64,000 nucleotides of DNA from an uncultured Gemmatimonadaceae bacterium (GCA_963829055.1 CAWHHI010000017.1:32001-96000), one strand, 5' to 3'; counted from the stretch's first letter, positions 1-63,211 are shown. Made by a program: numbers and translations. The notes: generated from the letters alone by a model not told the origin.

Positions 1-1569
1 CTTCACGAGCAGCCCAGCCCCGACGACCAGCATCATGGCCAGGCCGACCTCGAGCGCGACGAGCGCGCGACGCAGCGCGTGCGTCGCCAGCGGCACCGGT
101 GTTCCCGCGGCCGCTCTCGCGCAGCGTCCCGGCGACGTTGCCCACGATCGCCCATGACGGGGATCAACCCGAAGACGAGTCCCGTGAGCGCGGACACCCC
201 GAGCGCGAACGCCAACACCGTGCCGTCCACGCGCACGTCGCCGACGGCGGGCAGCCACGGACCGATGAGCGTTACCAGCGCGCGGACGCCCCACGTCGCG
301 AGCAGCACGCCGAGCACGCCGCCGGCGAGCGAGAGCGCGACACTCTCAGTGAACAGTTGCCGCGCCAGCCGCGCGCGACCGGCACCTAACGCGGTGCGCA
401 CGGCGAGCTCCCGCGACCGGCTGCGACGCACGCGCCAGCACGAGGTTCGCCACGTTCACGCACGCCAGCACGAGCGTGAGCACTACTGCGCCGAACAGGA
501 TCCAGCACGCCGCCCTCGGGAGTTGCCGAGGATCTCGTCGCGCAGCGGGACGACGTCGCGCGCGGTCCAACCCGGCGTTCGTGTCGCCGTACTCGCTCGC
601 GAGCCGATTCGTGATGACGGACATGTCGCGATCGCGCACGCGCCGCGGTCACGCCCGGCCGCGAGGCGCGCGATCGCCTCCAGCCACCGCACTCCGCGCG
701 TCCGCGGAATTCCGCTCGCCGGCACGACGGAGATCGGAGTCCAGACTTCCGTATCGCGCTCGGGAAACCGGAAATCCGCCGGCATGACCCCGACGACGGT
801 GAACGGCTCGTCGTTCAGGCGGAGTGTACGCCCGACAATGTCGCGCGCCGACCCATAACGAGTGCGTCCACAACCGGTGCGAGAGCACCACCACGCGATC
901 GCGCCCGTCGACGTGCTCGCTCGGCAGAATCGTTCGGCCGAGGGCGCGCTCACGCCGAGCGTCTCGAAGAAATCGGCGGCGACGAACGCGGTCTTGAGAC
1001 GAACGGGCTCTCCACCATCCACCAGCGCGAGACCGGTGGGCAGCGTGCTGTACGCGGACACGCCGGTCGAAGGCGAGTGCCAAGTCGCCGCCAATCGTCG
1101 AGATCCGGAATGGAGATTGGGCTTCGCGCCTCGTTGCGAGTCGGGATTTGCGAGCCACAGCCTGACGAGTCGATCCGGCGATGCCGAACGGCAGCTCGCG
1201 GAGCAGGACGCCACGCACGACGCTGAAGATCGCGGTCGTCGCACCGACACCGAGCGCGAGCGTCAGGACGACGACGGCGGTGAAGCCCGGGCTGCGCCGT
1301 GCCGCGCGCGCGGCGTACGCGAGATCCTGACGAAGCTGGTCGAGGAGACTGGAAGCCGTGCGCGTCACCGATCTCTTCCTTGTACCGCTGCACGCCGCCG
1401 AACGCGCGCAGCGCAGCGGTCCGGGCCTCATCCGCTCATGCCTCGCGCCACGTTCTCGGCCGTTTGACGCTCGACGTGAAAGCGCAGCTCGTCGTCGATC
1501 TCGCGAGACATGCGGCTCCGAAACACGAGCGACCGGATGCCGCAGAACCAGTCGTTGAAGCCAGAGCAT
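1..1569 (-). CDS. ADOP-family (MacB-like duplicated orphan) ABC permease, N-terminal part; runs off the window; frameshifted
   Basis: Across frames: [95 protein letters not shown]. Confidence 0.9.
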
Positions 1570-1629
1570 ACATTCCTCTGCACGGTGATCGCCCGCATGC
1601 GCCTAACGCGGCATTCGGGCGAGCCAGTC

Positions 1630-1680
1630 TGTAGAACGTCTACAAGAGACTGACCGGTCTCCTGTAGAATGTCAAGGAGA
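1630..1680. promoter_or_regulatory. Tandem palindromic operator-like boxes upstream of the ADOP permease gene
   Basis: TGTAGA-acg-TCTACA (1630-1644) and a related TCTCC-TGTAGA-atg-TCAAGG-AGA (1658-1680). The second overlaps a minus-strand TTGACA (1670-1675). Confidence 0.5.
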
Positions 1681-1760
1681 GCGACGCCTTCTTGCGGTAC
1701 GCGGCAGAACCAGCCGGGTTTCGCGGGTGGACACGACACGTTCCGGTTGCAGAGTACGGC

Positions 1761-3348: not shown

Positions 3349-3941
3349 CTGGCTGCTGCGTGCTGCTTGCTGACATTCGGGATCGCTGTCTTGTCGGCGG
3401 GGGCGTCGCGTCTCCGGCGGCGTAGGCGCTTACACGCCTCGAGCCGACGGGTACCGAACTCCGTGTGAGGCTGAGCTGGCTCGGCCCCGTCGTCTCGGGG
3501 CTACGCGCTAACGCCGCCTACGACGCGACAGCCCCGCCTCCTGGTACGCATCCCGAACCGTCAGGACAAGCAGCGCGCAGCACCCAGCAAGTGCGCGCCC
3601 TAACGCGCGACGGCGCCCGCCCGCGAGCTGGGTTGCACGCACTTGCTGCACGCTGGTTGCTGGGCGCGCCGCTGAGCGGCGCGCGAAGCGGGGTCGCGAT
3701 GCGTGGGCGGTGACGAGCGGCCGGCCCCGGAGCGGCATGCCGTCGGGCGCGGGCGCTCGGCGCAGGCGGCGTCGCGCGTAGCCCCGAGAGCAACGGGGCC
3801 GAGCCACTCTCCCGACACGGAGCCGCGTGCCCGTTGGCTCGAGGCGTGCAAGCGGTGGCCGCCGGAGCCGAGTGCCCGCGCCTAGCGCCGCGATGATCCG
3901 GACCAGCCCCGCGCGCACGGCGAGCACGCAGCAGCAGCTAG
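3345..3941. repeat. ~590-bp imperfect inverted-repeat (fold-back) element, MITE-like, between convergent genes
   Basis: CTAG at both ends; terminal IR CTG(G)CTGCTGCGTGCT; internal arms 3428-3454/3827-3853, 3478-3490/3793-3805, 3493-3508/3774-3789. Confidence 0.75.
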
Positions 3942-6900
3942 AGCTTCGCCTCCGCCGACTGCCGCCTGAGCTGCAGCACGCGGACGTTCGGATCGACCAC
4001 GACGCGCTCGGGCTTGAACGCACGTCCGAATCGTCACCGACTGCTTCTCCTTGCTGCCTAACGTCAACGACACGATCACGACCTGTACGGCTCGGCCGGC
4101 TTCCTGGCCTTCTTCGTCGTGTCCGACGGAAACCGCTCGCCCCGAACCGCCGCCATCTCGATGCGGCATCCGCCCCGTGCCGACGTTCTCGACCTCGGCC
4201 GTCGTCACCCAGCCGCCACCGGGCGCCGCGACGGTCTTCGCGTCGTGCACGCGATACTCCGGAACGACCACCGTGTCGAACCACTGGCGCACGAAATCGT
4301 CGTACGACGCCGTGTCGGGCGCATAACGCCGCATGTGCACCACGAAGTCGTGCAGCACCGGATGGTCCGGATTGCCGTTGTACGCCGCGATGAAGTCCTT
4401 CATGCCGCGCAGCGTCGGCTCGCGCCCCATCCGGTGCATGAGCATCCAGAACACCCAGCCGCTCTTGTCGTACGTGACCGTCTCGTCACCCGCCTTCGAC
4501 CCATCGAGCCGCAGGAGCTTGCGCTCCGCGTCCGCCTGACGCGTGATCGCCATAACGCGACTCGATGCGCTTGCGGAACTCCATCGCGTCGCGCTCGCCC
4601 TTCACCTGCTCGATCAGCAGCGCGGTCGAGAAGTGCGCCATCCCCTCGCTCAGGATGTCGCCGCTCGGTCCCTTCCCCGGCTGCAGCATGTTGCCCCACC
4701 ACTGGTGCGCCGACTCGTGCGCGGTCACGAGGAACGCCAGGTTCGTCTTCGGGTCGCTCTTCGTCAGGAAGCCGATGCCCTCCGAGAACGTGATGTTCGT
4801 CGGGAAGCCCTGCGCGTACGTCGCGAGCGCCGGGAACTCGCTGATCTTGAGCTCCTTCCACGGGAACGCGCCGAACCACTCGCCGTAGTACTTGCGCGCG
4901 GCGTCGAGCGCCTCGCTCATCTCCTTCACGTTGTACGGGTGGTCCGTCGTAGTAGTAGAGCGCCGTGCCGTTGCCGCGCTTCACCTGCCAGCGGCCGGCC
5001 ACGACGTTGAACGCCATGACCGGGTGGTCGCTCTTCCACACGACCGTGCGCCGTCCGTTCGACGTCGAGTCCGAGATCTTCTCGCCCACCGAGTTCGCCG
5101 TGAAGTCGGCCGGCGTCGTGATGCGGATCCGCGTCGTGGTCGGCAGCTCGCTGCCGAACGCCGGCTCGGTGATCCCCTCGTAGAAATCGTCGGGGTACTG
5201 TCGCGGCTCGTAGTCGTTCTTCCCTTCCTTGCGGCCGATCTCCTCGAGGTAGCCGACCGTCGGGAAGTAGCGCGGCGAGAAGCTCGTCATCACCACGCCC
5301 GACGGCACGCACGAATTCCCCCGCTCCGCCGCCGTTCTTGCGTCGCGCCCGTTTCCGTCCCCGTGTAGCTGAAGCCGAGACGCAGCGTGTCACCCGGCAT
5401 GAGCGGCTTGGGTGGCGTGAAGACGTGCAGCAGCGACGCGGTGTCGGGCGTGTACGCTACGCCGTTCATCGTCCACTTGAGATCACGCCACGACGGCGAG
5501 ATCGTGACCGGCACCTTGTCGCAGCTTCCGATCGTGCTTGTTCACGAGCACGTACGTGCCCTTCACCGTCCACGATCGCTCGTTCGGCTCGAGCACCGAG
5601 GTCCATGTCCACGTCCGGCGAGTGCGGGCACCGGGGCGTCCTTCCAGGTCGCGAGGTTCTTCTTCCAGTAGTCGCTTCGCCTTCTTGTCCGTCGGCCCGC
5701 CGTCGGGGCCATTCTCGATCTGGCGCCAGAGCATTCCGCCGGCGATGACCGGGACGAGCAGCGCCGGCGCCGCGCGAAGGAGCGACGTCCGCAGCGCCGA
5801 CGGCCGCAGTCCGATGCATGACGCGGATCGCGTCGCGGTCCTGTCGCGGGTACTGACGAATCGCGATCACGCAGGAAGAACGCGCCAAGCGCCGAGCACG
5901 AACAGGCGACTCAGCACGAGCGCGGTCCGGTCGATCTCGAGCGTGCTCATGTCGCTCCACCGCACCGCGTTCCACAGCGGCCAGTTGCCGAGCCAGTTCA
6001 GCTTGTTCGTCAGCGCGAGGTACGCCGTGTAGCCGAACGCGGCGAGCGAGACGCCGTAGGCCGAGAAACGGTTGCGCGTCACCGAATAGGCGGCGAATGA
6101 CGAACGCGGTCCACGCGAGGAACGTCGGGACGACGAGCCCACCCCAGACGAGCACGAACGGCAGCACGCTCGAAGCCGACGCGCCCCTGCACGAGCAGCG
6201 CGATCCAGCACGCGAGCAGGCACGCGACGCCGACGATGACGCCGATCGCGCACAACGCGACCACCTTGCCGATGACCAGCGCCGACGTGCGAATCGGCAA
6301 GCGCGTTGGCGATCGCGCTGAACCCGGTCGACCGCTCGCGCTCCATGCTCTCCACCGCGTAGAAGACCAGCAGGAGGCTGAGCAGCGTCGTCATGAACTG
6401 CATCTGCGTTCACGGCGAGCGTGCCCGGCGTGAGCAGCAGCGGCGTGTCGAACGCACCTAACGCCACGAGCGAGTTGCCGATGGTCTGGAACAGGATCAG
6501 CGGCACGAACAGGTAGAGACCCGGCTGGCTCCGAAGCTCGCGCATCTCCGAGCGTGCGACCTGCCACACCGTCTGCCAGAATCCGGCCGCGCGACGAGCG
6601 CATCCCGAGCTCCGCCAACGTGTCGACGCGACGCGGCACCGGCTGTCGCGAACTCACCGACGGCGGTCGGCTCGGCGACGCCCTTGCGCGGCTTTCACCT
6701 TCCCTGACTGACGCAGCGTCTGCGCGAACCGGGCGCCCGCCGGCCACCACCGCACCCAAGCCCGAGCAGCACGAGCGTCAGGCGACTGAGCAGGAACGGC
6801 GACATCGAACCCGATGCGCTGCGTGTTGTAGTAGTCCGCGCCACGATCGACCTTGAGGTACGTCTCGTTGAGCCAGCGCACCCCGCCGGGATCGATCAGC

Positions 6901-7574: not shown

Positions 7575-8543
7575 CGCACCACCTCCCGGTCGGCGCCGAC
7601 GCGGCACTGACGTCCTGGAATACGCGCGCATCGCTCGGCACGGCAGAGCCGGCTCCGTTCTTCGCGTTAGGCCTGCCGTGCATGAGGACGAAGTAGGCGT
7701 CCTCGAGCGTCGGCACCGCCGGCTCGAACCCGGGCGGCGCCTCGCGACTCGGCTCGTGGATCCGGACGCGGTTCCGTCCTTCGACGAGCACGGCCTGCGT
7801 CACGCGCCGCGCGCGTCTGCAGCGTCGTCCAGCTCGGCCGCCGCGACCGCGCCCTCGAAGATCGTCCCGGCGAGCATGCGGCGCGCTTCCGTCGGTGACG
7901 TCTCCGCGACGACCTGCCCGTTGCGGATGACGGCGAATCGCGGGCAGAGCACGGCGACGTCCTCGACGATGTGCGTCGACAGCAGCACGGTGCGCTGTTC
8001 CGCGAGCTCGGCCAGCATGCGGTAGAAGCGGTGGCGCTCTTCGGGGTCGAGGCCGGCCGTCGGCTCGTCGACGATGATGAGTCGCGGGTCGCCGGCGACG
8101 GCCTGGGCGATGCCGAGTCGCTGACGCATGCCGCCGGAGTAGTCCTTGACCTTCCGCTTCGCGGCGTAGGCGAGGTTCACCCGCTCGAGCAGCGACGCCG
8201 CGAGCTTCCGCGTCTCCTTGCCGCTCGCGACGCCCTTGAGCTGCGAGCAGATACTCGAGCATCGCCTCGCCCGTGAGGTGCGGGAAGAAGCCGAAGTCCT
8301 GCGGCAGGTAGCCGAGCACCGACCACAGCGCGCTCGGGCTCGGCGAGCACATCGCGACCGTCGAGCGTGACGGATCCCGACGTCGGCTCGAGCACTCCGG
8401 CGAGGATGCGCATGAAGGTGGACTTGCCCGGCCCCATTGGGGCCGAGCAGCCCGAACATGCCGGTGCCGATGTCGAGCGAGACGCCCTGGAGGGCGGTGA
8501 CGGGGCCGGGATAGACCTTCACGAGGTTGCGAACGCTGAGCAT
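7571..8543 (-). CDS. ABC transporter ATP-binding protein (frameshifted)
   Basis: GPNGAGKS Walker A, YSGGMRQRLGIAQA signature, IVDEPTAGLDP, LSTH; ATGA overlap with the permease gene. Confidence 0.95.
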
Positions 8544-9139: not shown

Positions 9140-11905
9140 GCGACGCGACTCGAAGGACAGGCCGGCCCAGGCTCTTTCGTCTGCCGACCGCGCGGCGACC
9201 GCCTCCGCGCGCGACATCGATCGCGAGCTGCGCTTCCACATCGAAGGGCGGATCGAGGAGCTGATCGCGCAGGGCCTACACGCGCGAGCAGGCGGAGCGC
9301 GAGGTCAGTGAACGCTTCGGAGACGTCTCGACCGTACGCGACGAGCTGCGAGGAGATCGACACGATGACACACCGGAAGACGCGAGCTCGGCGAATGGCG
9401 GAGCGCACTCGCGCGCGATTTCGGCTACGCGATTCGCGGTCTCGTTCCTTCGTCCCGGCGTTCGCCGCCGTCGTCGTGCTGACGCTCGGGCTGGGCATTG
9501 GAGCGACGACGGCCATCTACGCGCTGCTCGACGCCGTGGTTCTGCGGCCGCTGCCCTACCCTAACGCGGAGCGCCTGGTCTACATCGACCATCCCGTCCC
9601 GGGCGTCGAGACGAACGCGAATTGGCGCATGTCGCAGGCGGGCTACTTCTTCTTCCGCAAGAACTCCAAGCCGCTCGAGAACATCGCGCTCTTCAACCGC
9701 AGCGAAGCCACGTCTCGTCACGCGCGGACGCCGCCGAGCGCGTGCGGGCCGCGGCGGTGAGCGAGCAACTTCTTCGACGTCGTCGGCGCTCGGCCGTTCC
9801 TCGGCCGATCTTCACCGCTGCCGACAACCGACCTAACGCCCACCAGTCGTCGATGCTCGGGTACGACTTCTGGCGTCAGCGATTCAACGGCGATCCACGC
9901 ATCGTCGGGACGAGCGTCAACCTTGGCTCGGCGCCGTCGACGATCATTGGCGTGGCGCCGCCGAAGCTCGACCTCCCGGACTATCAGGTGCAGGTCTGGC
10001 GCCCTCTGGAGCTCGATCCGGACGCGCCGGCCGTCAACTCGCACTACCTCGACGCGGTCGCGCGGCTCGGCCCCGGCGTGACGGTGGCCGCGGCGCAGGC
10101 AGACGCGGCCGCCTGACGAGTCGGTTGCCCGAGGAGTCTTCCCTCGCGCCTACAGCCCCGGCTTCATGCGCGAGTCACGCTTCGCCGTGCTCGTCAGCGC
10201 CACTCCGTGACATCGGTGATCGGCGGCATGAGTCGCACGCTGTGGATCCTGCTCGCGGCCGTGTCGATCGTGCTGCTCATCGCCTTCGCGAACGTGGCGA
10301 ACTGTTTCTGGTGCGCGCGGAGTCGCGGCGGCGCGAGACTCGACGATTCGCACTCGCGCTCGGTGCCGAGCGCCTGCACCTCGCCGGTCACTACCTCTCC
10401 GAGAGCATTCTGCTCTCGCTGGTCGGCGGGGCGCTCGCCGTCGGCTCGCGTACGGCGCGTCCGGTTCCTCATCGTCCTCAATCCGTCGTCGGTTCCGCGA
10501 CTCGCCGAGCTCTCGTTCGGCTGGCGGCCGCTGCTCGCCGCGTTCGTCGCTGTCGTTAGGCGCCGGGATCGTGCTCGGACTGTTGCCGCTGACACGCCTG
10601 GCCGTCGACCGGCGACAGACGTGCCGACACTGCGCGAAGGCGGACGCACGCAGACGGCATCACGTCGGCCAGCTCAGCGCGCGCTCGGCGCTCGTCGTCG
10701 CGCAGATGGCGCTTGCGGTCGTGCTGCTCGCCGCGGCCGGGCTCATGCTGCGAAGCTTCCAGCGGCTCCGATCCGTCCAGCCCGGGCTCGAACGCGTCCG
10801 GGCGTGCTGACGTTCGAGGTCGCGCTGCCGTGGACGCGGTACGGCAACGCTCCGCGTGCCGGGGCCCGAGCGGCGTACCTGCCGTCGTTCCGCTTCTATC
10901 GCGAGCTCGCGCAACGCCTCGCAGCAGCTGCCCGGCGTGACGCAGCGTCGCCATGACGTCGGCGCTCGCCATCAAGGACGGCGATGGGTGCGCGCTCGTG
11001 TTCGCGAAGGGAACGCAGCTACACACGCGAGACCGCTCCCTGCGTCGGCGACTGTCATCGCTGGTCCGGGCTACTTCTCGACCTTAGGCATCCCGGTGCG
11101 CGGCCGGACGCCGACGTGGGCCGACGTCGAAGAGAAGAACGGCGCGGTCGTGGTGAGCAAGGCGTTGGCCGAGCACATGTGGCCCGGCGCAGGATCCGAT
11201 TCGGCAAGGAGCTTCGGCCTAACGGCGTCGGCTGATCCATGGTATCACGTCGTCGGCGTGACCGGCGACGTGCTGACGCGCGGCCTCGACCAACCGCCGA
11301 GCGAGATCGTGTACTACCCGATGGTGCCGATGGAGGGCGCGCCGCTCTGGTCGCCGCCGTTGCACGTGACCGTCGTGATCCGTACTCGCGCCGACGGACC
11401 CGTTGTCGCTCATGGCGCCTGTGCGTCGTATCGTGACGGCGCTCGACCGAGAGATCCCGATCGCCAACGCGCAGACGATGGAAACGATCGTCGCGACGTC
11501 GACGGCGAAGAGCGACGTTCGCGATGCTGCTGCTGGCGATCGCGGGCGGGATGGCGCTGGTGCTGAGCGCGGTCGGGATCTACGGCGTGATCTCGTACAC
11601 GGTGAATCAGCGTCGCGCGGAGATCGGCGTGCGGATGGCGTTAGGCGCGCACGCGTCGCAGGTCGGTCGGATGGTCGTGGGCCAGTCGCTGCGCGTGGCG
11701 GCTGTCGGCATCGCGATCGGACTCGCGGGCGCGCTCGCCACGACGCGCGTCCTGCAATCACTCCTGTTCGGCGTGAGCCCGACGGACCCGCTTACACTCG
11801 TCGGTGTGACGGTGCTCCTCACCACCCTCGGCGCGCTGGCAAGCTATATGCCCGGCGCGCAGGGCGACGAAGGTCGATCCGGTCGAGGTGCTGCGGAGGG
11901 AGTAA
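9136..11905 (+). CDS. ADOP-family ABC permease (many frameshifts)
   Basis: DRELRFH, LTLGLGIGATTAIYALLDAVVLRPLPY, LLIAFANVAN, VAQMALAVVLL, GIYGVISYTVNQRRAEIGVRMALGA, ending VDPVEVLRRE*. Confidence 0.92.
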
Positions 11906-12807: not shown

Positions 12808-13437
12808 GAAACTCGAGCTCCGGTATGCTGGGTGTAAAGGTGCGTCGTCCCGCGAGTGCAGCAACCACACCATCATGACCCCGGAGCGTCAAGTTGGTTC
12901 GGTCATCAATATGATCATCGAATGGCAGCGGTTGTAGTGTGACGCACCTCACATCGATACGGCCGTGCTTGCACCGTCACGGTCGCTGACCCGCCTCTTT
13001 CTCGCTCATCGCGGCGAGCGTTGCTGTGCCGGCCGATCGGATCATCCGCGCATAAACACCGAACATCGCGCAGATCTCGACGACCCGAACGGCTCGGCCT
13101 GCGTCAGCCTCAGCTCCGAAGCGGTCGTCGTCCGACACGCGGCACGGTGACGTTAGGCACGTCGGCGCCGATGAGCCGCGCGCCGCGCCGAGCAGCGGGA
13201 TGCGTCCATGGTCCCTCGAGCGAGATACAGATGCCGGACGGGCATTCACGTAGTACCCTGCCGTGGCGCCGCGCGTCACCCGACTCGGACCCGATCCGGA
13301 ACGGCTCGTCCCAGACATCTGCCCACGTCGTGACCAGGCATTGCATCACCGAGGTTCGGCAGTCAAAGTGAGACGAAGCGTCGCCGCGCGGCGACGCCTG
13401 ATCAGTCTATGCACGCCGCCCGGTCGGAGAGCGCCGC

Positions 13438-28449: not shown

Positions 28450-28461
28450 GCAGGCCGCACA

Positions 28462-48522: not shown

Positions 48523-49224
48523 ATGTATCGACAGCTCGACGACGACCGCATCATCGAGACACTGGAGCGCCTCCGCGACCGAATCATGGAGCGATTTCCG
48601 GCGTCGAGCCTTGCGCGCGTGAGCGAGGAGCTCCTCTCGATCGCTCACGAGTCCGCCTCGCACGTCGCCTATCTGGCGAAGCCGAGCTGGCCGGTTCGCG
48701 TGAGCGTGGGAATCGCGATCATCGCAATGGTCGCGGTCCTCGGCGCGGCGGCCTCACAGATTCGAGTGAGCGGTGGATCGGCGGGTTGGACGGACATCGT
48801 GCAGGGTGTGGAAGCGGCCATCAACGACGTGGTCTTCCTCGGCATCGCGGTCTTCTTCATGCTGACGATCGAGACGCGACTCAAACGCCGCCGCGCGCTC
48901 CGGGCGCTGCATCAGCTGCGGAGCATTGCGCACGTCGTGGACATGCACCAGCTCACGAAGGACCCGGAGCAGTTGGTCTCGAACCCGCCGGCGACGGCCT
49001 CGTCGCCGACGCGCACGATGACCCGCGGCGAGCTCGGACGCTATCTCGACTACTGCAGTGAGCTGCTGTCGGTGACGAGCAAGATCGCGGCGCTGTTCGT
49101 CGAGCGGTTCGACGATCCGGTCACGTTAGGCGCGGTGAACGAGATCGAGTCGTTGACGGCGGGACTGTCGAGAAAGATCTGGCAGAAGATCAGCATGCTG
49201 AACGGAGCATCGAGCGTCGGATAG
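48523..49224 (+). CDS. Hypothetical two-TM membrane protein
   Basis: Intact 233 aa ORF; LHQLRSIAHVVDMHQLTKDP, RYLDYCSELL, LSRKIWQKI. Confidence 0.88.
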   Translation: MYRQLDDDRIIETLERLRDRIMERFPASSLARVSEELLSIAHESASHVAYLAKPSWPVRVSVGIAIIAMVAVLGAAASQIRVSGGSAGWTDIVQGVEAAINDVVFLGIAVFFMLTIETRLKRRRALRALHQLRSIAHVVDMHQLTKDPEQLVSNPPATASSPTRTMTRGELGRYLDYCSELLSVTSKIAALFVERFDDPVTLGAVNEIESLTAGLSRKIWQKISMLNGASSVG

Positions 49225-51791: not shown

Positions 51792-52766
51792 ATGACCGAT
51801 CGCATGACGGACCGCGCGGACAGCAGTAAACCCGAGACCGGCTCGAACGTCGCGATCTACGCGTCCATAGTGGCGAACGTCGCCATTGCCGCAACGAAGC
51901 TGACCGCGGCCACGATGAGTGGCAGTTCGGCCATGGTTGCCGAAGGTATGCACTCGCTCGTTGATGCCTCGGACGGCACGCTCCTGCTGATCGGCCGGCG
52001 TCGTAGCCTGAAGCCGGCGGACGCGTCGCATCCATTCGGATACGGCAAGGAGCTGTACTTCTGGACGCTCATCGTGGCGGTCGTGTTCTTCGCCGTCGGC
52101 GGCGGGATGTCCGTGTACGAGGGCATTCTCCACATCCTCCATCCCGAGCCGATCAGCGACCCGACGCTGAACTACATCGTGCTCGGCGTCGCCGCGCTGT
52201 TCGACGGCACGTCGTTCGTCATCGCGCTACGCACGCTGCGACGCGAGGCACCCGGGCAGAGCGTGATGCACGTCGTGAGGCACGGGAAGGACCCGGCGCT
52301 GTTCACCGTCGTGCTGGAGGACTTCGCGGACCTGGCGGGGCTCGCGTTCGCGTTCCTCGGCGTGTGGCTTGGACACTACTTCGCGAATCCCTATCTCGAT
52401 GGCGTCGCATCGATCGCGATTGGGCTGCTGCTGGCGGCCGTGGCGCTCGTGCTCGTCGCCCAGAGCCGCTCGCTGCTCATCGGGTCGCGCGCGAGCGGCG
52501 ACGTCCTCCGCGCCGTGAACGAGGCGGCCGAGGCGGACCCGAACATCGAGTTCGCCGATTGTCCGTTGAGCATGCAGCTCGGGCCTAACGAGGTACTCCT
52601 CGGCGTGAAGGCCCGGTTCGCACCGCATCTCTCGCGCGCCGAGATTGGCGCGTCGATTCGTGGGTTCGAGGATCGGCTGCGCGCCGCTCGCCCCGAGGTC
52701 CGGTACATATCCGTGGAGCCGGTCGCCGCGACGGATGCGTCGCGGCCTCCCGTCCTTGCGCGCTGA
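51792..52766 (+). CDS. Cation diffusion facilitator (CDF) transporter
   Basis: SGSSAMVAEGMHSLVD, HPFGYGKELYFW, LEDFAD. Confidence 0.95.
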   Translation: MTDRMTDRADSSKPETGSNVAIYASIVANVAIAATKLTAATMSGSSAMVAEGMHSLVDASDGTLLLIGRRRSLKPADASHPFGYGKELYFWTLIVAVVFFAVGGGMSVYEGILHILHPEPISDPTLNYIVLGVAALFDGTSFVIALRTLRREAPGQSVMHVVRHGKDPALFTVVLEDFADLAGLAFAFLGVWLGHYFANPYLDGVASIAIGLLLAAVALVLVAQSRSLLIGSRASGDVLRAVNEAAEADPNIEFADCPLSMQLGPNEVLLGVKARFAPHLSRAEIGASIRGFEDRLRAARPEVRYISVEPVAATDASRPPVLAR

Positions 52767-52840: not shown

Positions 52841-54233
52841 ATGGCGATGAAGCGAGTGAAAGCCGAGGAAGATGCGGAGATCATCACGGTCGACGGCCGA
52901 GAGGTCCGCGTCACGCATCCCGACAAGCCGTACTTCTCGCGCGAGGTCACGCTCTCGAAGCTCGACCTCGTTCGGTACTACCTCTCCGTCGCGCCGGGCG
53001 CGGTCGCCGGAATTCGCGATCGCCCCGTCGTGCTCAAGCGATTCGTGAACGGCGCGGAGAGCCCGCCGTTCTACCAGAAGCGTGCGCCGGAAGGCCGGCC
53101 GACGTGGCTGCGGACGGTCACGCTGTCGTTTCCATCAGGACGTACGGCGGAAGAGATCGTCGTCGACGACGCGGCCGGTCTGGCGTGGATCGTCAACCTC
53201 GGCTGCCTCGAGCTGCATCCGCACGCGGTGCGCACGGGCGACCTCGATCATCCGGACGAGCTGCGCATCGATCTCGATCCCGGGCCCGGGCGTTTCGTGG
53301 GACGACGTGCGTCGCGTCGCGATGGAAGCGAAGGGGCTGCTCGAGGAGCTGGGGCTGCGCGGCTGGCCGAAGACGAGCGGCTCGCGCGGCATGCACATGA
53401 ACGTGCGCATTGAACCGCACTGGACGTTCACCGAGGTGCGCCGCGCCGCGCTCGCGTTCTCGCGCGAGATCGAGCGGCGCGCGCCGGCGCTCGCGACGTC
53501 GAAGTGGTGGAAGGAGGAGCGGCGCGGCGTGTTCCTCGACTACAACCAGAACGCGAAGGACCGCACGACCTGCTCGGCCTACTCGGTGCGTCCGCTGCCT
53601 GACGCGCGCGTGTCGGCGCCACTCGAATGGTCGGAGATCCCCGAGTGCGATCCGGCGGACTTCAACACGCTGCACGATGCCGGCGCGGCTGGCGAAGATC
53701 GGCGATCCGCACGCGGGCATGGATGACGCGGCGGGCTCGCTGGACGCGATTGCTCGAGCTCGCGGCACGCGACGAGGCGGCGGGACTCGGCGACGCGCCC
53801 TGGCCGCCGCACTTCCAGAAGATGGATGGCGAGGCGACGCGCGTAGCGCCGTCACGCGCGAAGGGTGCCGCGAAGAAGAAGACGGCTGCGGCTCCGCGCG
53901 CGAAGATGCCGCTCATCGTCGTCGCGAACTCGCCGGACAAGGACGCGGCGCTGGCGGGGCTCGAGCGGTGGAAGGCGAAGCACCCGGACGTCGCGGCGCA
54001 CCTCGCCGCCGGACGACGTGCTGGTCGATTCGATGCGCGGCCGGTCGTCGACGTGGACGCGCATTCGCGTGAACCTGCGCAACGTTCCGGAGGCGGACCG
54101 CCCACCGCAGGAAACGCCGGATCCGGATGACGATCCGACGCGCGAGTGGCGTGAGGCTATGCTGCGTGCCAAGAAAAGCAGGCCGGCATCTCAGAAGAAG
54201 GGGCAAACGGATGCCGCGGATCTGTCGGATTGA
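52841..54233 (+). CDS. Stand-alone LigD-type primase-polymerase (AEP) with C-terminal extension; frameshifted
   Basis: THPDKPYF, KRFVNG..FYQKR, PDELRIDLDP, KTSGSRGMH, KWWKEERRGVFLDYNQN. Confidence 0.93.
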
Positions 54234-54240
54234 CTCAGGT

Positions 54241-54355
54241 GTCATCCCGAGGAGCGCGAGCGACGAGGGACCTTCTGTGATGGCATCGTAGCTGGTCTGG
54301 CCACGAGTAACTCACAGAAGATCCCTCGCTGACGCTCGCTGACGCTCGGGATGAC
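54241..54355. repeat. REP-like palindromic element, family A
   Basis: GTCATCCCGAG..GAGGGACCTTCTGTGA..TCACAGAAGATCCCTC..CTCGGGATGAC. Confidence 0.9.
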
Positions 54356-54364
54356 ATTGCTCCA

Positions 54365-55452
54365 TCAACGCCCTCGGCGAAGATCTCCGCCAGCTCGTGC
54401 GGCGCGACGACCTCGAGCTGCGCGAACGTGCAATCGCTCGGGCGCTTGTCGGTGCGCCAGCGACGGAACTGCGCCGTGTGCCGGAAGCGGCCGCCCTGCA
54501 TGTGGTCGTACGCCACCTCGACCACGAGCTCCGGGCGCAGCGGCTCCCACGAGAGATCCTTGCCCTGGCTCCAGCGGCTCAGCGCGCCCGGCCGACGCTG
54601 CGTCGCGGCGGTCGCCGGCTCCGCCTCCGCCCACGCGCGCCACGGGTGATCGTCGAGCGCGTTCTCGCGATAGGGCTCGAGGAACGTGACGAGCTCCCGC
54701 CGCTTCGCCGCCGTGAAGCTCGCGCAGACGCCGACGTGCTCGAGGTTGCCGCTGTCGTCGTAGAGGCCGAGCAGCAGCGAGCCTAACGCGACGCCTTCTC
54801 CGTTCTTGTGCCAGCGGAAGCCGGCCACGACACAATCGCAGTCGCGCTCGTGCTTCACCTTGAGCATCACGCGCTTGTTCGGCTCGTAGGTGCCGTTCGG
54901 CGCCTTCGCGATGACGCCGTCGAGCCCCGCGCCCTCGAAGCGCTTGAACCAGTCGGCGCCGACGACGCGGTCGCGCGTCGCCGGCGTGAGGTGGAGCGGC
55001 GGGGCCGCGTTCGCGAGGATCGACTCGAGCGCGGCGCGGCGTTCGCGAAAGGGCGTCGTCGCAGAGGTTGCGGTCGCCCTCGCACAGCAGGTCGAAGAAC
55101 ACGATCGACGCCGGCGATCTCCGTCGCCAGCATCTTCACGCGTGACGCCGCCGGGTGCAGGCGCAACTGCAGCGCCTCGAAGTCGAGCCCGCCCGTCTCG
55201 GGCGATGACGATCTCGCCGTCGAGCACGCAGCGCTCGGGCAGCTGCGCCTTCAGCGGCTCGACCAGCTCCGGGAAGTAGCGATCGAGCGGCTTCTCATCG
55301 CGGCTCTGGATGAACAGCTCGTCGCCATCGCGGAAGACGAGCGTGCGGAAGCCGTCCCACTTCGGCTCGAAGATCCACCCTTCGCCGGGTGGAAGCTCGC
55401 TCACGCGCTTGGCGAGCATCGGCAGCACGGGCGGATTGACGACGAGATTCAT
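54365..55452 (-). CDS. ligC: ATP-dependent DNA ligase, LigC type; frameshifted
   Basis: EPKWDGFR, LDGEIV, FFDLL, EGAGLDGVIAK, GFRWHK, SRWSQGKDLSW, RFRHTAQF. Confidence 0.93.
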
Positions 55453-56050: not shown

Positions 56051-56150
56051 GCGGTGCCGCGCGGTGCGTGACATTGCCAACGTATCGCGCCTAACGGTCG
56101 TCAGGCCATATTACCCGAGCGCAGCCGACTCGTGAACAGGAATCCCTCGA

Positions 56151-56870: not shown

Positions 56871-58256
56871 TCAACGGGGCTTTGAAGTAGCCAGCGGAAA
56901 CTCCGCGACCCCAATGCGCACGATCGTGTTCCGTCCGCGTCGCCCGTTCTCCACGCGCGCCGGAGTCTGCGCCTCCTCGGGCCAGATGCCATACACCTTG
57001 CCCTCGAGCGCGGCGAGCCCGTTGTAGTCGCCGAGGAACGAGGACTCGCGCGGGTCGAACGAGACGTCCGTCCAGGCGTAGTTCGTGAACGTGCGCGCGC
57101 CGTCCGTCGATCGAGCGAGCACGACGATCGGCCTGACGTTCGTCGAGTCGCCGCGGCGATCGTAGAACATGACGTACGCCGAGCCGTCGGCTGGATCGAC
57201 CGCGACCCACTGCATGAACTGATCTTTCCCGTTATGCACCGGATCGTCGTTCACGCGCGTCGGCTTCGACCACGTGCGGCCGCGATCGGCGCTCGAGGCG
57301 ACGAAGATGTCGATGTCGCCGTTGCGGTAGTCGCCCCACGAGACGTAGAGGCGCTGGCTCTTCGGCTCGATCGCAATGTTCGGGAATCCATTCCCGCGCG
57401 AGAAGTTCGCGATGTTGAAGTACGGCGGTGCCGTCTCGATCACGCGACGCGATGGCGTGAACGTCTTGCCGCCGTCGCGCGACGTGGTGAACACGATGCC
57501 TTTGCCGTCGTGCCAGGTGGCGTAGAGCGTGCCATCGTCCGCGATCGCGGCGCGGAAGCCGACGAGGCCGCCGGTGTCGTCGCGTGGGAGACCGGGCTCT
57601 GTGCTCACGACCTTCGGCGTGCTCCACGTTAGGCCGTCGTCGGTCGAGCGGGAGAACAGCATCACGGTGCGATCGACCTGGAACTGGATCCAGCCGATGT
57701 AGAGATTGCCAACGTAGGGGCTCTTCTCGCGCGTGTCGGCGACGATGGACGGCATGTCCTCCCACGGGAGGCCGGGTTTCGTCTCCGGATGTTCGACGAC
57801 GACGTTAGGCTCCTTCGCCCACGTCTTGCCGCCGTCGGGCGAGCGCCGCACGAAGATCCCGCCGCGCGAGCCGCCGAGCGCCCAGTAGGACGTCACGCCG
57901 GTGCGGTCGAACGCGATGTAGCAGAGGAAGGCATGACCGTGCCGGTCGATGGTGACAGACACGTCGCCGGCGACCTTGTAGTTGGGCGGGACGGTGCCTT
58001 CCGCGCCGATCCATGTGGCGCCGCCGTCGGTCGACCACGATGCGCTCGCCTGATTCTGATACACGCCGACGACGTGCCGCGCGTTGCGTGGGTCGATGGC
58101 GATGCCGGGCTCGGTGAATGGGCCGGGTTCGGTGATGGTACTCACGCGCGCACCGGGTGCACGCGGCAGCGGCTCGCGCACGAAGCTCTGCCCGCTCGCC
58201 GCGGACGACGCGAGCGCGACGATTGGAACGAGACTACTCAGGCGAAGAGTTGTCAT
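56871..58256 (-). CDS. Exported sialidase-like BNR (Asp-box) repeat protein
   Basis: Signal peptide; Asp boxes STDGGATW, SPDGGKTW, STDDGLTW, SRDGGKTF, SADRGRTW, STDGARTF; FLGDY. Confidence 0.92.
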   Translation of the reverse strand: MTTLRLSSLVPIVALASSAASGQSFVREPLPRAPGARVSTITEPGPFTEPGIAIDPRNARHVVGVYQNQASASWSTDGGATWIGAEGTVPPNYKVAGDVSVTIDRHGHAFLCYIAFDRTGVTSYWALGGSRGGIFVRRSPDGGKTWAKEPNVVVEHPETKPGLPWEDMPSIVADTREKSPYVGNLYIGWIQFQVDRTVMLFSRSTDDGLTWSTPKVVSTEPGLPRDDTGGLVGFRAAIADDGTLYATWHDGKGIVFTTSRDGGKTFTPSRRVIETAPPYFNIANFSRGNGFPNIAIEPKSQRLYVSWGDYRNGDIDIFVASSADRGRTWSKPTRVNDDPVHNGKDQFMQWVAVDPADGSAYVMFYDRRGDSTNVRPIVVLARSTDGARTFTNYAWTDVSFDPRESSFLGDYNGLAALEGKVYGIWPEEAQTPARVENGRRGRNTIVRIGVAEFPLATSKPR

Positions 58257-58483: not shown

Positions 58484-59537
58484 ATGCGCGTTTCCAACAT
58501 GGTACACGCCGTCGATGCCCACGCGTGCGGCGAGCCGGGACGCGTCATCGTCGGCGGCGTGCTCGACGTGCCCGGCAAGACCATGTACGACAAGATGTGC
58601 CACCTCCGCGATCACGCCGACGGCCTGCGCAAGCGCATGCTGCGCGAGCCGCGCGGGTATCCTGCCGCGAACTGCAATCTGATCCTCCCGTCATCGAACC
58701 CCGAGGCGGACGCCGGCTACGTCATCATGGAACAGGTCGAGTATCCGGGCATGTCGGGCACGAACACGATCTGCGTCACGACCGTGCTGCTCGAGACGGG
58801 AATGCTGCCCATGCAGGAGCCGGTCACGGAGCTCACGCTCGAGAGTCCCGCGGGACTCATCCGCGTGCGCGCCGACTGCGTGAACGGCAAGGTCAAGCGC
58901 GTGACGTTCCGCAACGTCCCCGCGTTCGCCGCCTACCTCGACACGAGCATCGAGGTTCCGCACCTCGGCACCGTCGTCGTCGACGTCGCCTACGGCGGCA
59001 TGTTCTACGTCATCGCCGACGCGACGCAGTTCGGCCTTCGCCTAACGCCTGACGAGGGCGGCGACATCGTGCGCATCGGCGAGATGATCAAGGCCGCCGC
59101 GCGCGAGCAGTGTCCCGATCGTTCACCCGGAGCAGCCGGGATTCGAGGGCGTGACCATCGCGCAGCTCTCCGGCCCGCCGCTCCGCGACGATGCCGACTG
59201 GCAGAACTGCGTCGTCGTGTCTACCGGAGAGCTCGACTGGAACAAGCCGAGCACGTGGACGGGGGCGATCGATCGATCGCCGTGCGGCACGGGAACGTGC
59301 GCGAAGATGGCGACGCTCCACGCCAGAGGGAAACTCGCGCTCAATCAGGACTTCCGACACGCCGGCGTGTTCGGCACCGTGTTCACCGGTCGTCTCGTCG
59401 AGGAGACGAAGGTCGGCAAGTACACGGCGGTCGTCCCGACGCTCGGCGGCCAGGCGTGGATCACGGGCATGGCGACGTACGTCGTCGATCCGGATGATCC
59501 CTTCCCCGACGGATTCACGGTCGGCGACATCTGGTAG
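58484..59537 (+). CDS. Proline racemase superfamily protein (Ser/Cys active-site pair); frameshift near 59115
   Basis: DAHACGEPGR, REPRG, GMSGTNT, DVAYGG, IDRSPCGTGT. Confidence 0.93.
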
Positions 59538-59555
59538 GACCCGCGGCCATACCGC

Positions 59556-60374
59556 CTAACGTTCGGCCGGCGCGTCGTCGCGAGGCGTCGCGTTCGCCTC
59601 GCCAAGCAGGAGCGGCAGGCGGTCGCGGTAGCTCCGACTCAGCCGCAAGCGTGCGCCGCGCCGAGTCCGGATGATGTACTCGCCGTGGTAGTACGGCTCG
59701 AGCGACACGATGCTCGACCGACGCACCAATGCCGACCGGTGTACGCGGACGAAGTCCCGAGGATCGAGACGCTGTTCGAGCGCCGAGAGCGTCGATCGAT
59801 AGAGGTGAGACTTGGCCGTTGTATGCAGGCGCAGATAGTCACCGTCCGCTTCGACCCATTCCACGTCCGCGACCTCGACGAACGTGATCTTGCCGGTGGC
59901 TCGGATCGGGATTCGCACGAGCGGCGTCACGCTGGGCGTCCCCGCGGCCGACGAGGACGCGGGCGCCACAGCAGGGAGCGATCCAGGGGCGGTGCTTGAT
60001 TCTCGCGCCGCGCGCTCGGCGAGCCGCTCCCGCACCCGGACCAGCGTGCGGTTGAAGCGCTCCTCGCCAACGGGCTTCAGGAGATAGTCGATCGCTTCGT
60101 GCTCGAAAGCACGGACGGCATGCGCGTCGAACGCAGTGACGAAGACGACCGCCGGAACGGCCCGCGGACCGAGCGCTTCGAGCACACCGAGACCGGAGAG
60201 GCCGGGCATCTGTACGTCGAGGAACAGCGCGTCCGGATCGTGCTGATCGACCGCGGTGACCGCTTCGGTTCCGCTGCCGCACTCGGCCACTACAACCACA
60301 TCGCTGTGGCGCCCGAGCAGTACACGAAGCCGTTTTCGCGCGAGCGGTTCGTCGTCCACGATGATCACGCGCAT
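59556..60374 (-). CDS. LytTR-family response regulator
   Basis: IVDDEPLAR, FLDVQMP, DYLLKP, FVRVHRS, LSRSYR. Confidence 0.95.
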   Translation of the reverse strand: MRVIIVDDEPLARKRLRVLLGRHSDVVVVAECGSGTEAVTAVDQHDPDALFLDVQMPGLSGLGVLEALGPRAVPAVVFVTAFDAHAVRAFEHEAIDYLLKPVGEERFNRTLVRVRERLAERAARESSTAPGSLPAVAPASSSAAGTPSVTPLVRIPIRATGKITFVEVADVEWVEADGDYLRLHTTAKSHLYRSTLSALEQRLDPRDFVRVHRSALVRRSSIVSLEPYYHGEYIIRTRRGARLRLSRSYRDRLPLLLGEANATPRDDAPAER

Positions 60375-61498
60375 CACGACGGCATCTCCTGCGACACCGA
60401 TGCGCGACGCAGCGGCAAGACAACAGTCGCGCGCGTGCCGCCACGCGGCCCAGCCATCACGCGCAGCGACGCGGCTGCTCCGTACGATCGAACCAGGCGC
60501 TCCGCCGTGTTCCGGAGCCCGAGGCCGCGTGAGCCGGCGAGCGAGAACGCCGGCGAGACACCCACACCGTCATCCGTTACCTCGACGCGAAGCCCTGCGC
60601 CGTCGGCACAGGCGTGGACGCGTACAATGCCGCCCTCGACAGATGGCTGTATGCCATGGCGGACCGCGTTCTCGACAAGTGGTTGGAGAATGAGCATCGG
60701 GACGAGCGCATCGTCGAGCGTGCCGTCGACGTCAATGTCCACCGCGAGACGCCCGCTGAACCGGACGCGCTCGATCTCCAGGTAGCTCCTCACCAGCGCA
60801 ATCTCATCTGCCAGCGTGATCTCGGCGTGCTCGGCATGCTCGAGTGTCTGGCGCAGGAAACCGCTCAGGTGCTCGATCATTCGCTGAGCGGCGACAGGAT
60901 CGTCATCGACGAGCGCGGAGATGGCGTTGAGGCTGTTGAAGAGGAAGTGCGGATCCAGCTGCATGCGCAGCACCTGCAGCTGCGCTCGCGACGCCTCGTC
61001 GCGCAGCAGCGCCTCCCGTTGCCGACGCGTTCGGGCAGCGTACTCGTGCTCCAGTGCGTACGCCATGAGCGCCACGATAATGCCGACGAGCGCGTCGTGC
61101 CTAACGACCACCCGGAATAGCGCCGGAGCACTCGCGGTACCATCGAACGTCGCGCGCAGCGCGGGCCACGCGTGCGACAACGCCGTCACCACGACGGCGT
61201 GCACGACGATCGTCGCGAGCACCAGCCCGCCCAATGCGAATGTGGTCGCGGCACGGTGCCACGTAGCACCGAGCGCGCGACGAAAGAGGCGGGCCTGCGG
61301 TAGCGTCACCACTACCCACAGCGCCACGATCGCGACCAACACCCCAGTCGGTGGCGCCCCAGGCACGCCCGCCGCGCCACCGGCCTCGCCGCGCCCCACA
61401 GTCAACTCCGCTGCCGCGGCGCCGCACGCGATGACGAGCAGTAGCACACGATCGACTCGTCCGGGCGGCATCTGCGGGTTGGTCGTCGCTGGAGGCAT
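60374..61498 (-). CDS. LytS-type sensor histidine kinase
   Basis: Membrane N-terminus; QLDPHFLFNSLNAI, YLEIERVRF, LQPLVENAVRHG, GLGLRN. Confidence 0.93.
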   Translation of the reverse strand: MPPATTNPQMPPGRVDRVLLLVIACGAAAAELTVGRGEAGGAAGVPGAPPTGVLVAIVALWVVVTLPQARLFRRALGATWHRAATTFALGGLVLATIVVHAVVVTALSHAWPALRATFDGTASAPALFRVVVRHDALVGIIVALMAYALEHEYAARTRRQREALLRDEASRAQLQVLRMQLDPHFLFNSLNAISALVDDDPVAAQRMIEHLSGFLRQTLEHAEHAEITLADEIALVRSYLEIERVRFSGRLAVDIDVDGTLDDALVPMLILQPLVENAVRHGIQPSVEGGIVRVHACADGAGLRVEVTDDGVGVSPAFSLAGSRGLGLRNTAERLVRSYGAAASLRVMAGPRGGTRATVVLPLRRASVSQEMPS

Positions 61499-61670
61499 GG
61501 CTACACGATGCGTTCGAAGACTCGGCGCGGAAAGCCTGCTCGACGTGCGGTAAGGCCGGTTCGTCGATCCGCCGCGCCGGCCGGCCGAGTCGACGCGGAA
61601 GCAACCGGGCGTCGACACGATCGTAGCGCCGTTCACTCGCGCAGCATCCGCAAACACAGGAGTTACACCA

Positions 61671-63211
61671 GTGCTCATTGCTCGCCCTACCTCTCGCACT
61701 ATTGTCATCGCCGCGGCGGTGACTCTTCTCAGTAGTCCCGTCCCAGCAGGCGCCCAACCGCAGTGCTCCGCGCGCACGTTCACCGCGTGCGGCGTACGCG
61801 TCGAGAACAGTCGCGTCATCGTGCAGGGGGCTGCTGCACAGCCCATTGGATTGTTAGGCTGGCGCGGCACCGGACTCGCGCCTCGGTCGGCCGCCAGCTT
61901 CCCAAGCGATTCAGCCGTGCTCGGACCACTCGGCCCGCTCATCGACGCCATGCCTGGCGCCGGTATTGTGATCGGGCTCCTCGAGCCGGACGGCCGTACG
62001 CGCGTCATCACGCATGGCACGTCGGGACGCCATGGCGTGCCGTTGAGCGACAGCACCGTATTCGAGATTGGATCCGTGACGAAGGTGTTCACCGCCGTCG
62101 TGCTCGCCGATATGGTGGCGAAGCGCGAGGTCCGGCTCGATGACCCGGTCGCGAATTATCTGCCGCCGTCCGTTCGGATGCCGTCGAGAGATGGCCGAGC
62201 AATAACGCTTCTCGATCTGGCGACTCATACGTCCGGTCTGCCACGCAACCCGACGAACCTCGCAGCTGCGGATTCCGGCGGTCCCTACGCGCGCTACGAT
62301 GTCGGCAACCTCTACGCGTTCCTGTCGTCCTATGGCCTAACGCGTGCGCCAGCGACGCAGTTCGAGTACTCGAACGTCGGCTTTGGGCTTCTCGGGCACG
62401 CGCTCGCGCGCCACGCCGACACATCGTACGACGCGCTCGTCCGCGCACGACTGCTCGACCCGCTCGGCATGCGCGACACACGCATCGCGCTCGACGCCGA
62501 GCGTGAGGCGCGGTTTGCGGTGGGGCACGCGGTTGATGGCACGGTCGTGGGTCCGTGGGAGTTGCCCGCGCTTGCCGGCGCCGGTGCCTACCGCTCGACG
62601 GTCGCAGACCTCCTTCGCTTCGTGAAGGCGAATCTCGCAGTCGGACGCCAACCCGCTCGGCCTAACGCTGGCAAGTGCGCGTCTCGCGCGGCGAGCCACC
62701 CCGGTTTCCGGCATGGGCATGGCCCTCGGCTGGCAGACGCATCTTCCGGACAACGACACGGTGCCCGCGTTCGTCTGGAAGGACGGTCAGACCGGCGGCT
62801 TTGCCTCGTTCATCGGCGTCGACGTCGCGCGGCATTGAGGCGTGGTGATGCTCGCGAACGTCGCGGGAGCGGAAGCGCTGGACGCGGTCGGCATCGGTCT
62901 ACTGAGCGACAAGAACGCGGGAAACCTGGCCGTCCGGGGCATCGGTTCCGACGGACAGCGTGTTGGATACGTACGTCGGCGAATATGAACTCGCCCCAGC
63001 GTTCCACATGGTGGTCACGCGAGCGAAGCACACGTTGTATGTCCAGGCAACGGGGCAGAATCGCCTGACGCTCCTGGCTCGAAGCGATCGGGAGTTCGAC
63101 GTCGTGGGTGTCGCGGCGCGCGTCCGATTCGACATCGACGCCGGCGGTCACGTGACGTCGCTCGTTCTGGAACAGGGTGGGAAATCGTCGGCCGCCCGCC
63201 GCATACGGTGA
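61671..63211 (+). CDS. Serine hydrolase (class C beta-lactamase/PBP-like) with C-terminal DUF3471-like domain; frameshifted
   Basis: FEIGSVTK (SxxK), LATHTSGL, YSN, WKDGQTGGF; LDTYVGEYEL. Confidence 0.92.

Follow-up and report, generated by a model that had tools for sequence, protein, structure and literature searches.

A 64,000-nt stretch of an uncultured Gemmatimonadaceae genome (GCA_963829055.1, CAWHHI010000017.1:32001-96000; hereafter the window) raises the question of what maintains a short DNA word that recurs about once per kilobase, largely inside genes. The window corresponds to positions 32001-96000 of contig C17 in a 7.78 Mb assembly of 20 contigs (G000), which is frameshifted and 86% complete. 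The closest RpoC relatives of this assembly carry the label Gemmatimonadaceae. It contains 66 solitary copies of the core CCTAAC between positions 384 and 62667, in both orientations and with a mean spacing of ~970 bp. A recount agrees with the original prediction, made from this DNA alone, on the number, positions and strands of the copies (41 plus, 25 minus) and on their 3' extension (58/66 CCTAACG, 7 CCTAACA and 1 CCTAACT), and the ~7 heptamers expected at zero order are recomputed as 7.2; the GC content, put at ~69%, is measured as 67.3%. What the prediction overlooked is a 5' G. The full word is the non-palindromic 8-mer GCCTAACG/CGTTAGGC, with CCTAAC as invariant core, and it accounts for 45/66 copies in the window. 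Dinucleotide shuffles of the window contain CCTAAC/GTTAGG 5.7 times on average and at most 13 times, and 0/100 reach 66. An Rfam scan of the window gave no matches. We tentatively favor, at somewhat less than even confidence, the interpretation that this is a self word akin to the DNA uptake sequences (DUS) of Neisseriaceae and the highly iterated palindrome HIP1 of cyanobacteria, maintained by a drive linked to recombination.

The window is part of a genome-wide pattern. G000 holds 7,103 CCTAAC/GTTAGG hexamers, every one of its 20 contigs having 0.75-1.2 per kb; a G precedes the hexamer in 79% and follows it in 90%. The full word makes up 5,004 of these, 49x the order-2 Markov expectation and the top rank among 8-mers by that ratio, and reaches a density of 0.64 per kb (0.94 per kb counting variants) on both strands. 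Strongly enriched one-off variants carry changes of the first or last base, together with one internal variant, GCATAACG; the remaining core variants have observed/expected (O/E) ratios of 0.78-2.1, the central 90% of 305 random 8-mers spanning 0.76-1.25. Gene calls made for this analysis comprise 6,495 genes (71% coding), 387 of which end in the word, and coding statistics were computed on 3,992 better-supported genes. As to the possibility, raised in the original prediction, that codon usage would leave no enrichment, the word occurs 2,701 times in these genes versus 106 times in synonymous-codon shuffles, an excess of 25x. Codon shuffling moves the rare codons of the word to other places and thereby creates a spurious depletion of its precursors, and a masked null yields no expected count for the complete word. 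The copies fall into four reading frames: the three named previously (xCG-TTA-GGC, 1,100 copies; CCT-AAC, 738; CTA-ACG, 498) and GTT-AGG (365), with stop codons also overlapped. Within the same genes, 1,608/2,251 TTA codons (71%) sit inside the word, and the word is sparser in low-GC3 genes (0.66 vs ~1.0 per kb). The claim that the window copies lie mostly in coding sequence holds for 41/66, found in open reading frames (ORFs) with a Pfam hit or gene-model call; the other 25/66 lie between genes or in genes that are frameshifted or were not called.

Comparison with the congener G001, of which 472 kb align to G000 at 78.4% identity, shows that the word is inherited and arises by substitution. 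Shared sites number 225 of the 406 in G000, leaving 181 that are G000-only, and a further 156 are G001-only. In a first, pooled set, the word is retained in 79/114 coding sites with unchanged amino acids, and the same rare codons outside the word are retained far less often (TTA 0/15, CTA 16/51, CCT 29/110, GTT 63/204, AGG 19/60). At unshared sites the core carries 1-5 substitutions, with a gap within the eight columns at 29/261, and an origin as insertion scars was rejected on these grounds. Nor was a lower mutation rate seen near sites, four-fold-site divergence staying level as the distance from shared sites grows (residuals within 0.017; 43,678 sites; saturation 0.62). A drain of precursors was not seen either, one-off core precursors standing at O/E 0.78-2.1. 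Protein stretches at sites are slightly more variable than elsewhere (amino-acid mismatch 0.21 vs 0.18). Compensation between lineage-specific sites is weak at 200-300 bp (34 vs 26 and 48 vs 38 of 169; p 0.04 and 0.01) and absent both at 50-100 bp in the larger G001 set and in the first G001 set; compensatory turnover was otherwise significant only in a pooled set whose values are non-independent.

Sites exclude one another over short distances regardless of orientation. The pair correlation, computed to 5 kb, rises in 50-bp steps through 0.17, 0.26, 0.39, 0.52, 0.73, 0.81 and 0.92, so that mutual avoidance extends over ~400 bp, alike for all four orientation pairings, and control 8-mers give a flat pair correlation. 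The variants ACCTAACG, CCCTAACG, GCCTAACA and GCATAACG join in the avoidance and GCCTGACG and GCCGAACG do not. The same short-range exclusion is present in a congener assembled in short contigs. Avoidance is also evident in occupancy, measured over contexts that synonymous change could turn into the word. With the next site 400-1,200 bp away, 80% of Pro-Asn, 58% of Leu-Gly, 53% of Leu-Thr and 13% of Val-Arg contexts are occupied, compared with 23%, 7%, 6% and 1% when it is under 50 bp away. Expressed as odds over background, isolated convertible contexts are filled 58-302x, and contexts that have another site within 50 bp 4-16x. Long gaps are mildly depleted (O/E 0.73-1.0 above 3.2 kb). Taken with the codon null and the congener comparison, occupancy and silent-site conservation bear out the central proposal of the original prediction, a selected or driven non-palindromic signal acting across the genome; the mutual exclusion itself, the carriage of the word by phages and its identity with an integron core site, both described below, were absent from that account.

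The word is patchily distributed. At least 100 copies are present in 15/40 relatives and in 13/250 genomes of the phylum, tallies that include four unpublished genomes (G013, G085, G124 and G203), all motif-poor, on which no claim rests. The 13 motif-rich phylum genomes all belong to one order, falling into its families as 8/53, 5/113 and 0/3, with 0/81 outside the order. On the tree of one vertically inherited gene, motif-rich and motif-poor genomes interleave; densities among relatives run continuously from ~0.03 to 1.25 per kb, most relatives being without the word, and 20 loci from motif-poor relatives (3-24 kb each, one of them without ORFs) showed no conspicuous alternative word. Candidate readers of the word were tallied in 27 motif-rich and 43 motif-poor genomes, and the integron integrase IntI, an Eco57I-like and a D12-type methyltransferase, ComEC and the nuclease domain PF12705 were all rejected, as none tracks the word; ComP, searched in five genomes, was rejected too. 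Within G000 itself, a foreign-looking block of 49.6 kb (C6:5440-55037; GC 70%) contains housekeeping genes and zero 8-mers of the word, and for 15/26 of its proteins another part of the assembly encodes a second, more distant homologue; this block probably results from a chimeric join or from the recent transfer of a large segment. Two contig starts also look foreign, C19:1-9500 (starting at GC 55%) and C4:1-2850, whose start cuts an integrase gene.

Several phages carry the word as well, at ~1 per kb, which is new here. Two pattern scans of IMG/VR, selecting loci with two copies, returned at least 120 and 37 of them, the majority being cassette-like arrays or pairs due to chance. In five records counted over their full length, the word and a reversed control occur, respectively, 43 and 2 times (41 kb), 26 and 0 times (28.6 kb), 26 and 2 times (25.5 kb), 18 and 12 times (57.8 kb) and 10 times and once (20 kb). 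The four annotated records are tailed phages in which the word lies within head, tail or terminase genes. Two phages favor GCCTAACRA, and the word is patchy across the 45 capsid relatives of one such phage. Close capsid or terminase relatives of these phages were absent from 301 genomes of the order, and portal relatives were found in 2/251 genomes at only 34-37% identity. The nearest named terminase (79%) comes from a metagenome-assembled genome of Chthoniobacterales, and a second host lineage is therefore possible. Six further IMG/VR contigs (L267, L208, L241, L243, L220 and L221) hold co-oriented attC-like arrays, possibly phage-borne cassettes or misclassified host DNA. The complete 57.8-kb phage (G398; L412-L414) encodes proteins resembling queuine tRNA-ribosyltransferase and Erf, a GTP cyclohydrolase and anti-restriction proteins.

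Under the recombination-linked drive that we tentatively favor, a sequence-specific DNA-handling protein would recognize the word, and a segment bearing it would gain an edge in uptake or in recombination into the chromosome, a molecular drive of the kind proposed for DUS, for the uptake signal sequences (USS) of Pasteurellaceae and, more recently, for HIP1. Because such segments would be favored, point mutations completing the word at cheap coding positions would be fixed and those destroying it resisted, codon preference notwithstanding. A single site would serve ~0.4-0.6 kb, and a second site nearby would be rare because little would be gained by it. Several observations agree with what is described for uptake sequences. 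According to the available text of PMC2397512, DUS sites lie in more variable stretches and are fewer in low-GC3 genes, and in that of PMC7811141 fairly even spacing is the expected outcome of uptake drive. ComEC, part of the competence machinery, is intact in G000 and over the cut-off.

A number of observations weigh against this drive. Close inverted pairs are depleted like same-strand pairs (14 and 16 opposite-strand pairs less than 100 bp apart). A site with a neighbor within 100 bp is about as likely to be retained as an isolated one (22/36 vs 123/197), and both members are kept in 6/27 close and 50/161 distant pairs (p 0.5); retention independent of neighbors means less decay than a saturating drive predicts, the numbers being small, and gives a hint that exclusion may act on gain. 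The accessible part of PMC2817400 describes DUS and USS as missing from genes without homologues, so the density of the word in G001 DNA without a match in G000, 1.01 vs 0.82 per kb in aligned DNA (against a reference that is 86% complete), may count on the same side. Phage structural genes carry the word at 0.9-1.05 per kb, which is the host level. In phage G398, 32/33 GCCTAAC point one way, an orientation that holds across 18 kb of opposite gene strand (p 8e-9), and in the 41-kb record (G395) orientation changes from 21:5 to 5:16 near a flip in GC skew; uptake is blind to orientation and leaves such polarity unexplained. ComEC is equally common in motif-rich (23/27) and motif-poor (36/43) genomes, and the receptor domain ComP_DUS (PF16732) is over the cut-off in 0/5 genomes searched.

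A close rival, which we consider rather unlikely, is an intracellular ratchet in which a factor marking or nicking one strand at the word biases mismatch or damage repair, so that errors creating the word are retained and those destroying it are reversed; where a site already exists within ~400 bp, it would steer repair to its normal course and thereby prevent new sites. The available text of PMC4390886 proposes a repair ratchet of this type for HIP1, and the pattern of tolerated variants, mostly at the first or last base around a nearly invariant 6-bp core, is shared with HIP1. Such a ratchet accommodates the saturation near one site per kb, the equal density in accessory DNA and the retention of sites independently of their neighbors; phage DNA replicating in the cell would gain the word, and a strand-asymmetric mark could yield phage polarity. 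It is opposed by the flat four-fold divergence, the undrained precursors and the lack of leading/lagging bias in the host, and neither of the two methyltransferases tested tracks the word, which leaves the methyltransferase-site idea of the original prediction without a co-distributed candidate. A methyltransferase motif screen of G000, which can miss others, gave 15 candidate ORFs, of which 6 were scanned and 2 proved DNA methyltransferase-like. The D12-type enzyme occurs in 11/27 motif-rich and 12/43 motif-poor genomes and the Eco57I-like enzyme in 26/27 and 40/43, neither difference being significant. The latter (L128:7552-12318; ~1,070 amino acids) adjoins a helicase-like ORF and is present in 66/70 Gemmatimonadales genomes. 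Both of its halves follow family taxonomy, the C-terminal half as judged by identity matrix, a mode of inheritance that is unusual for a restriction-type enzyme.

Direct selection is the other close rival and is, in our estimate, unlikely. Here the word would be the site of a chromosome-organizing or DNA-protecting protein needed about once per kb; phages would copy it to pass as self, and the one-way phage would be explained if a machine moving in one direction ran into the bound protein. The sharp consensus, the conservation, the even short-range spacing, the host-level density in phages and the weak compensation at 200-300 bp are all consistent with selection of this type. The mild depletion of long gaps and the continuous densities among relatives, most of them without the word, speak against it, and no candidate protein was identified.

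The sequence of the word points to a further source, the integron. Recombination sites of integron cassettes (attC) are bounded by RYYYAAC and GTTRRRY according to the available text of PMC3053210. The word fits GTTRRRY and is identical to the commonest attC end of the lineage, that is, to the crossover core of its cassettes: 102 attC ends in two relatives comprise 41 GCCTAACG, 38 GCCTAACA and 17 GTCTAACR (GTTAGAC). The tolerated variants TGTTAGGC, GTTAGGT and, presumably, GTTATGC also resemble cassette ends. Many of the few copies in motif-poor relatives are co-oriented ~550 bp apart and are the ends of attC hairpins, and G000 has an integrase on C20 next to a short array whose left ends are mostly GCCTAACG. 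A chromosomal integron was also noted at L007:2712-10959, with the attC array at the intI 3' end and cassettes facing it. That the word was seeded from the core site by the integrase itself, or by scars left at secondary sites when cassettes were inserted and excised, is nevertheless very unlikely, and the scar version is largely refuted. Integrases do insert at chromosomal GWT sites, as described in the available part of 10.1101/2022.09.11.507474, but sites here arise by substitutions rather than indels, and a search for an inverse core 57-141 bp away placed 0/66 window copies in an attC-like hairpin. In contrast to attC cores, the word is solitary, lies inside genes without a partner arm, and does not accept the GTTAGAC type, which is not iterated (GTCTAACG has only 24 copies in G000). 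It is also independent of integrase presence: IntI is over the cut-off in 13/27 motif-rich vs 31/43 motif-poor genomes (p 0.07), the opposite direction.

A polar signal for a helicase-nuclease (Chi) or for FtsK (FtsK orienting polar sequences, KOPS) appears highly improbable, and in this host the word is neither. The non-palindromic octamer form and the phage polarity, both the near-uniform orientation of G398 and the switch in G395, would suit such a signal. In the host, GGGNAGGG, which we take to be the canonical KOPS word, is strongly skewed and already supplies polarity; its orientation flips together with GC skew at 557-572 kb of C16 (557577-572672), which is likely the terminus. The gene dnaA lies on C3 at ~530 kb, and a search for a dif-like pattern gave no match. 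The word itself lies on the leading strand in 2,003 vs 1,990 cases (50.2%) in the six large contigs other than C16, and on C16 the share is 52-58%, tracking gene orientation. An apparent one-strand run in the host G121 was rejected, copies on both strands being evident there in the DNA itself and with a narrower pattern. Exclusion between sites ignores orientation, and the AddAB/RecB nuclease domain PF12705 occurs in only 9/27 motif-rich genomes, compared with 23/43 motif-poor ones, a difference that is not significant. Separately, no AddAB/RecB-type nuclease domain was found in 38/71 genomes searched (G121, G193, G021 and others), several of them 99-100% complete.

The last alternatives, a base-calling or assembly artefact, as which the original prediction had allowed the word might be unmasked and to which the many single-base indels in the window relative to a near-identical contig lend some color, and plain codon or peptide bias, are refuted by the core being kept at 14/14 covered window sites in two independent JGI contigs of near-identical strains, by 2,500-5,100 copies in each of 6/6 congeners, by the motif-free block of C6 in the same assembly and by the use of four reading frames with codons that are rare elsewhere.

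Of the analogies offered by the original prediction, uptake sequences and HIP1 fit best and Chi and KOPS fail in the host, where the leading-strand skew is missing. The available texts on uptake sequences (PMC2817400, PMC2397512, PMC7811141) and on HIP1 (PMC4390886, PMC5861425) match most features of the word, which behaves like DUS and HIP1 yet fails membership of each. With DUS and USS it shares a non-palindromic form, occurrence on both strands at ~1 per kb, preferred coding frames, conservation in permissive stretches, relatively even spacing, scarcity in foreign-looking DNA and the ComEC competence machinery. It differs from them in being 8 bp rather than 9-12, lacking inverted terminator pairs and, in the five genomes searched, a ComP receptor, having equal density in unaligned accessory DNA, being polyphyletic in one order, being phage-borne and equaling an integron core. 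HIP1 (GCGATCGC) and the alternate HIPs of cyanobacteria resemble it as octamers at ~1/kb with a 6-bp core, tolerated first and last bases, conservation beyond codon constraints and patchy loss across the tree, but the word is not a palindrome (GCCTAACG vs CGTTAGGC), has no matching methyltransferase among the two candidates and no alternative word in the 20 loci sampled. Chi (RecBCD/AddAB) and KOPS (FtsK) are likewise short non-palindromic chromosomal octamers, and the word is polar in one phage; it lacks host replichore skew, is far denser, coexists with a separate canonical KOPS, and an AddAB-type nuclease is mostly unfound in motif-rich genomes. One 2024 preprint reportedly ties HIP1 to transformation. 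The available text of PMC13756078 likewise ties HIP1 to transformation.

A broader scenario, which we regard as quite improbable, would join these strands: a mobile factor recognizing the integron core, for example an uptake receptor tuned to cassettes or a binder derived from an integrase, may have spread between soil lineages and driven the word chromosome-wide, with phages, possibly also in a second phylum, copying it as self, some of them one-way. Transformation can supply cassettes to chromosomal integrons, according to the available part of PMC12614218, which makes a cassette-catching receptor conceivable. If true, a single word of eight letters would link integrons and transformation with self-marking between phages and hosts.

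The individual sites of the window illustrate how the word is accommodated (plus strand and GCCTAACG unless noted). Pro-Asn is encoded at 2952-2959 (TerB gene), 9559-9566 (CCCTAACG, model ORF), 27395-27402 (amidohydrolase), 31597-31604, 32128-32135, 34481-34488 and 34787-34794 (Omp85-like gene), 42197-42204 (minus, RidA/L-PSP gene), 47514-47521 (SusD-like), 52583-52590 (cation efflux) and 57803-57810 (minus, BNR-repeat gene), and the same frame is used at 61852-61859 (GCCTAACA, minus, histidine kinase ORF) and 62660-62667 (beta-lactamase-fold ORF). Leu(TTA)-Gly follows Ala at 11639-11646 (minus, FtsX-type permease piece), 26686-26693 (minus, MacB-type permease), 34408-34415 (minus, Omp85-like), 36078-36085 (DUF6895 gene) and 54781-54788 (ATP-dependent ligase); Pro at 28444-28451 (minus, amidohydrolase), 31773-31780 (minus), 43183-43190 (CCCTAACG, lipid kinase) and 46252-46259 (minus); Thr at 40305-40312, 42802-42809 (ACCTAACG, lipid kinase), 44430-44437 (CCCTAACG, minus, TonB receptor piece), 49124-49131 (minus) and 50075-50082 (M1 peptidase); Ser at 28315-28322 (ACCTAACG, minus, amidohydrolase); and Leu at 20989-20996 (GCCTAACA, Wzy_C gene), while 384-391 (ACCTAACG) reads GCG-TTA-GGT in a minus-strand model ORF. 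Leu(CTA)-Thr is found at 33211-33218 (CCCTAACG, Omp85-like), after Gly at 22460-22467 (minus, model ORF), 57627-57634 (minus, BNR-repeat) and 62335-62342 (beta-lactamase-fold ORF) and after Arg at 50762-50769 (minus, M1 peptidase) and 59040-59047 (proline racemase ORF). Val(GTT)-Arg(AGG) is read at 39910-39917 and 61099-61106 (histidine kinase), a TAA stop of a model ORF is overlapped at 14248-14255, and the TAG stop of a minus-strand LytTR gene (59556-60377) at 59554-59561. Of the ten aligned relatives, the Omp85-like gene retains the core at 33211 in 8/10 and at 34787 in 6/10, and the site at 34408 in 3/10 and at 34481 in 6/10. The ligase site lies in a pair of end-joining genes, for a LigD primase-polymerase and the ATP-dependent ligase (52841-55452).

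Further copies lie inside the RidA/L-PSP ORF (42317-42324, TCCTAACG, minus), within a frameshifted TonB receptor gene (44961-44968, CCCTAACG), at 36941-36948 (minus) and in intergenic DNA (56089-56096). Those in regions with no called ORF are at 1601-1608, 4056-4063, 11217-11224, 18489-18496, 30853-30860 and 37355-37362; on the minus strand at 7665-7672, 10554-10561, 13151-13158, 16456-16463, 20009-20016 and 38702-38709; and as ACCTAACG at 6456-6463 and 9831-9838, CCCTAACG at 3598-3605, GCCTAACA at 18850-18857 (minus), 23519-23526, 24325-24332, 30670-30677 (minus) and 38061-38068, TCCTAACG at 20309-20316 and GCCTAACT at 24074-24081. The sites at 30670, 30853 and 31597 are retained in contig L148 and those at 36078, 36941 and 37355 in L147. 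Many single-base indels relative to the near-identical L148 occur at 28696-30961, and the split genes of the window are for this reason probably assembly errors. Contigs from four studies match the window region at ~99% identity with 782 differences and were left unused for site-level claims.

Full-text searches, with subscription journals largely outside them, gave no published description of the word in bacteria among the matches listed. To our knowledge, few lineages iterate a short self word in their genes, namely Neisseriaceae, Pasteurellaceae and cyanobacteria, and the origin of such words is still debated. In the present group, closely related genera have the word in full, in part or not at all, the local saturation of the word is measurable at the level of single codons and it extends to phages, so that comparisons can put drive, selection and repair bias to the test. 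Either the word matches the integron core by remarkable chance, or the movement of cassettes is connected with the evolution of the chromosome. In practical terms, the word provides a sharp marker for binning and host assignment, and it may matter for transforming these soil bacteria.

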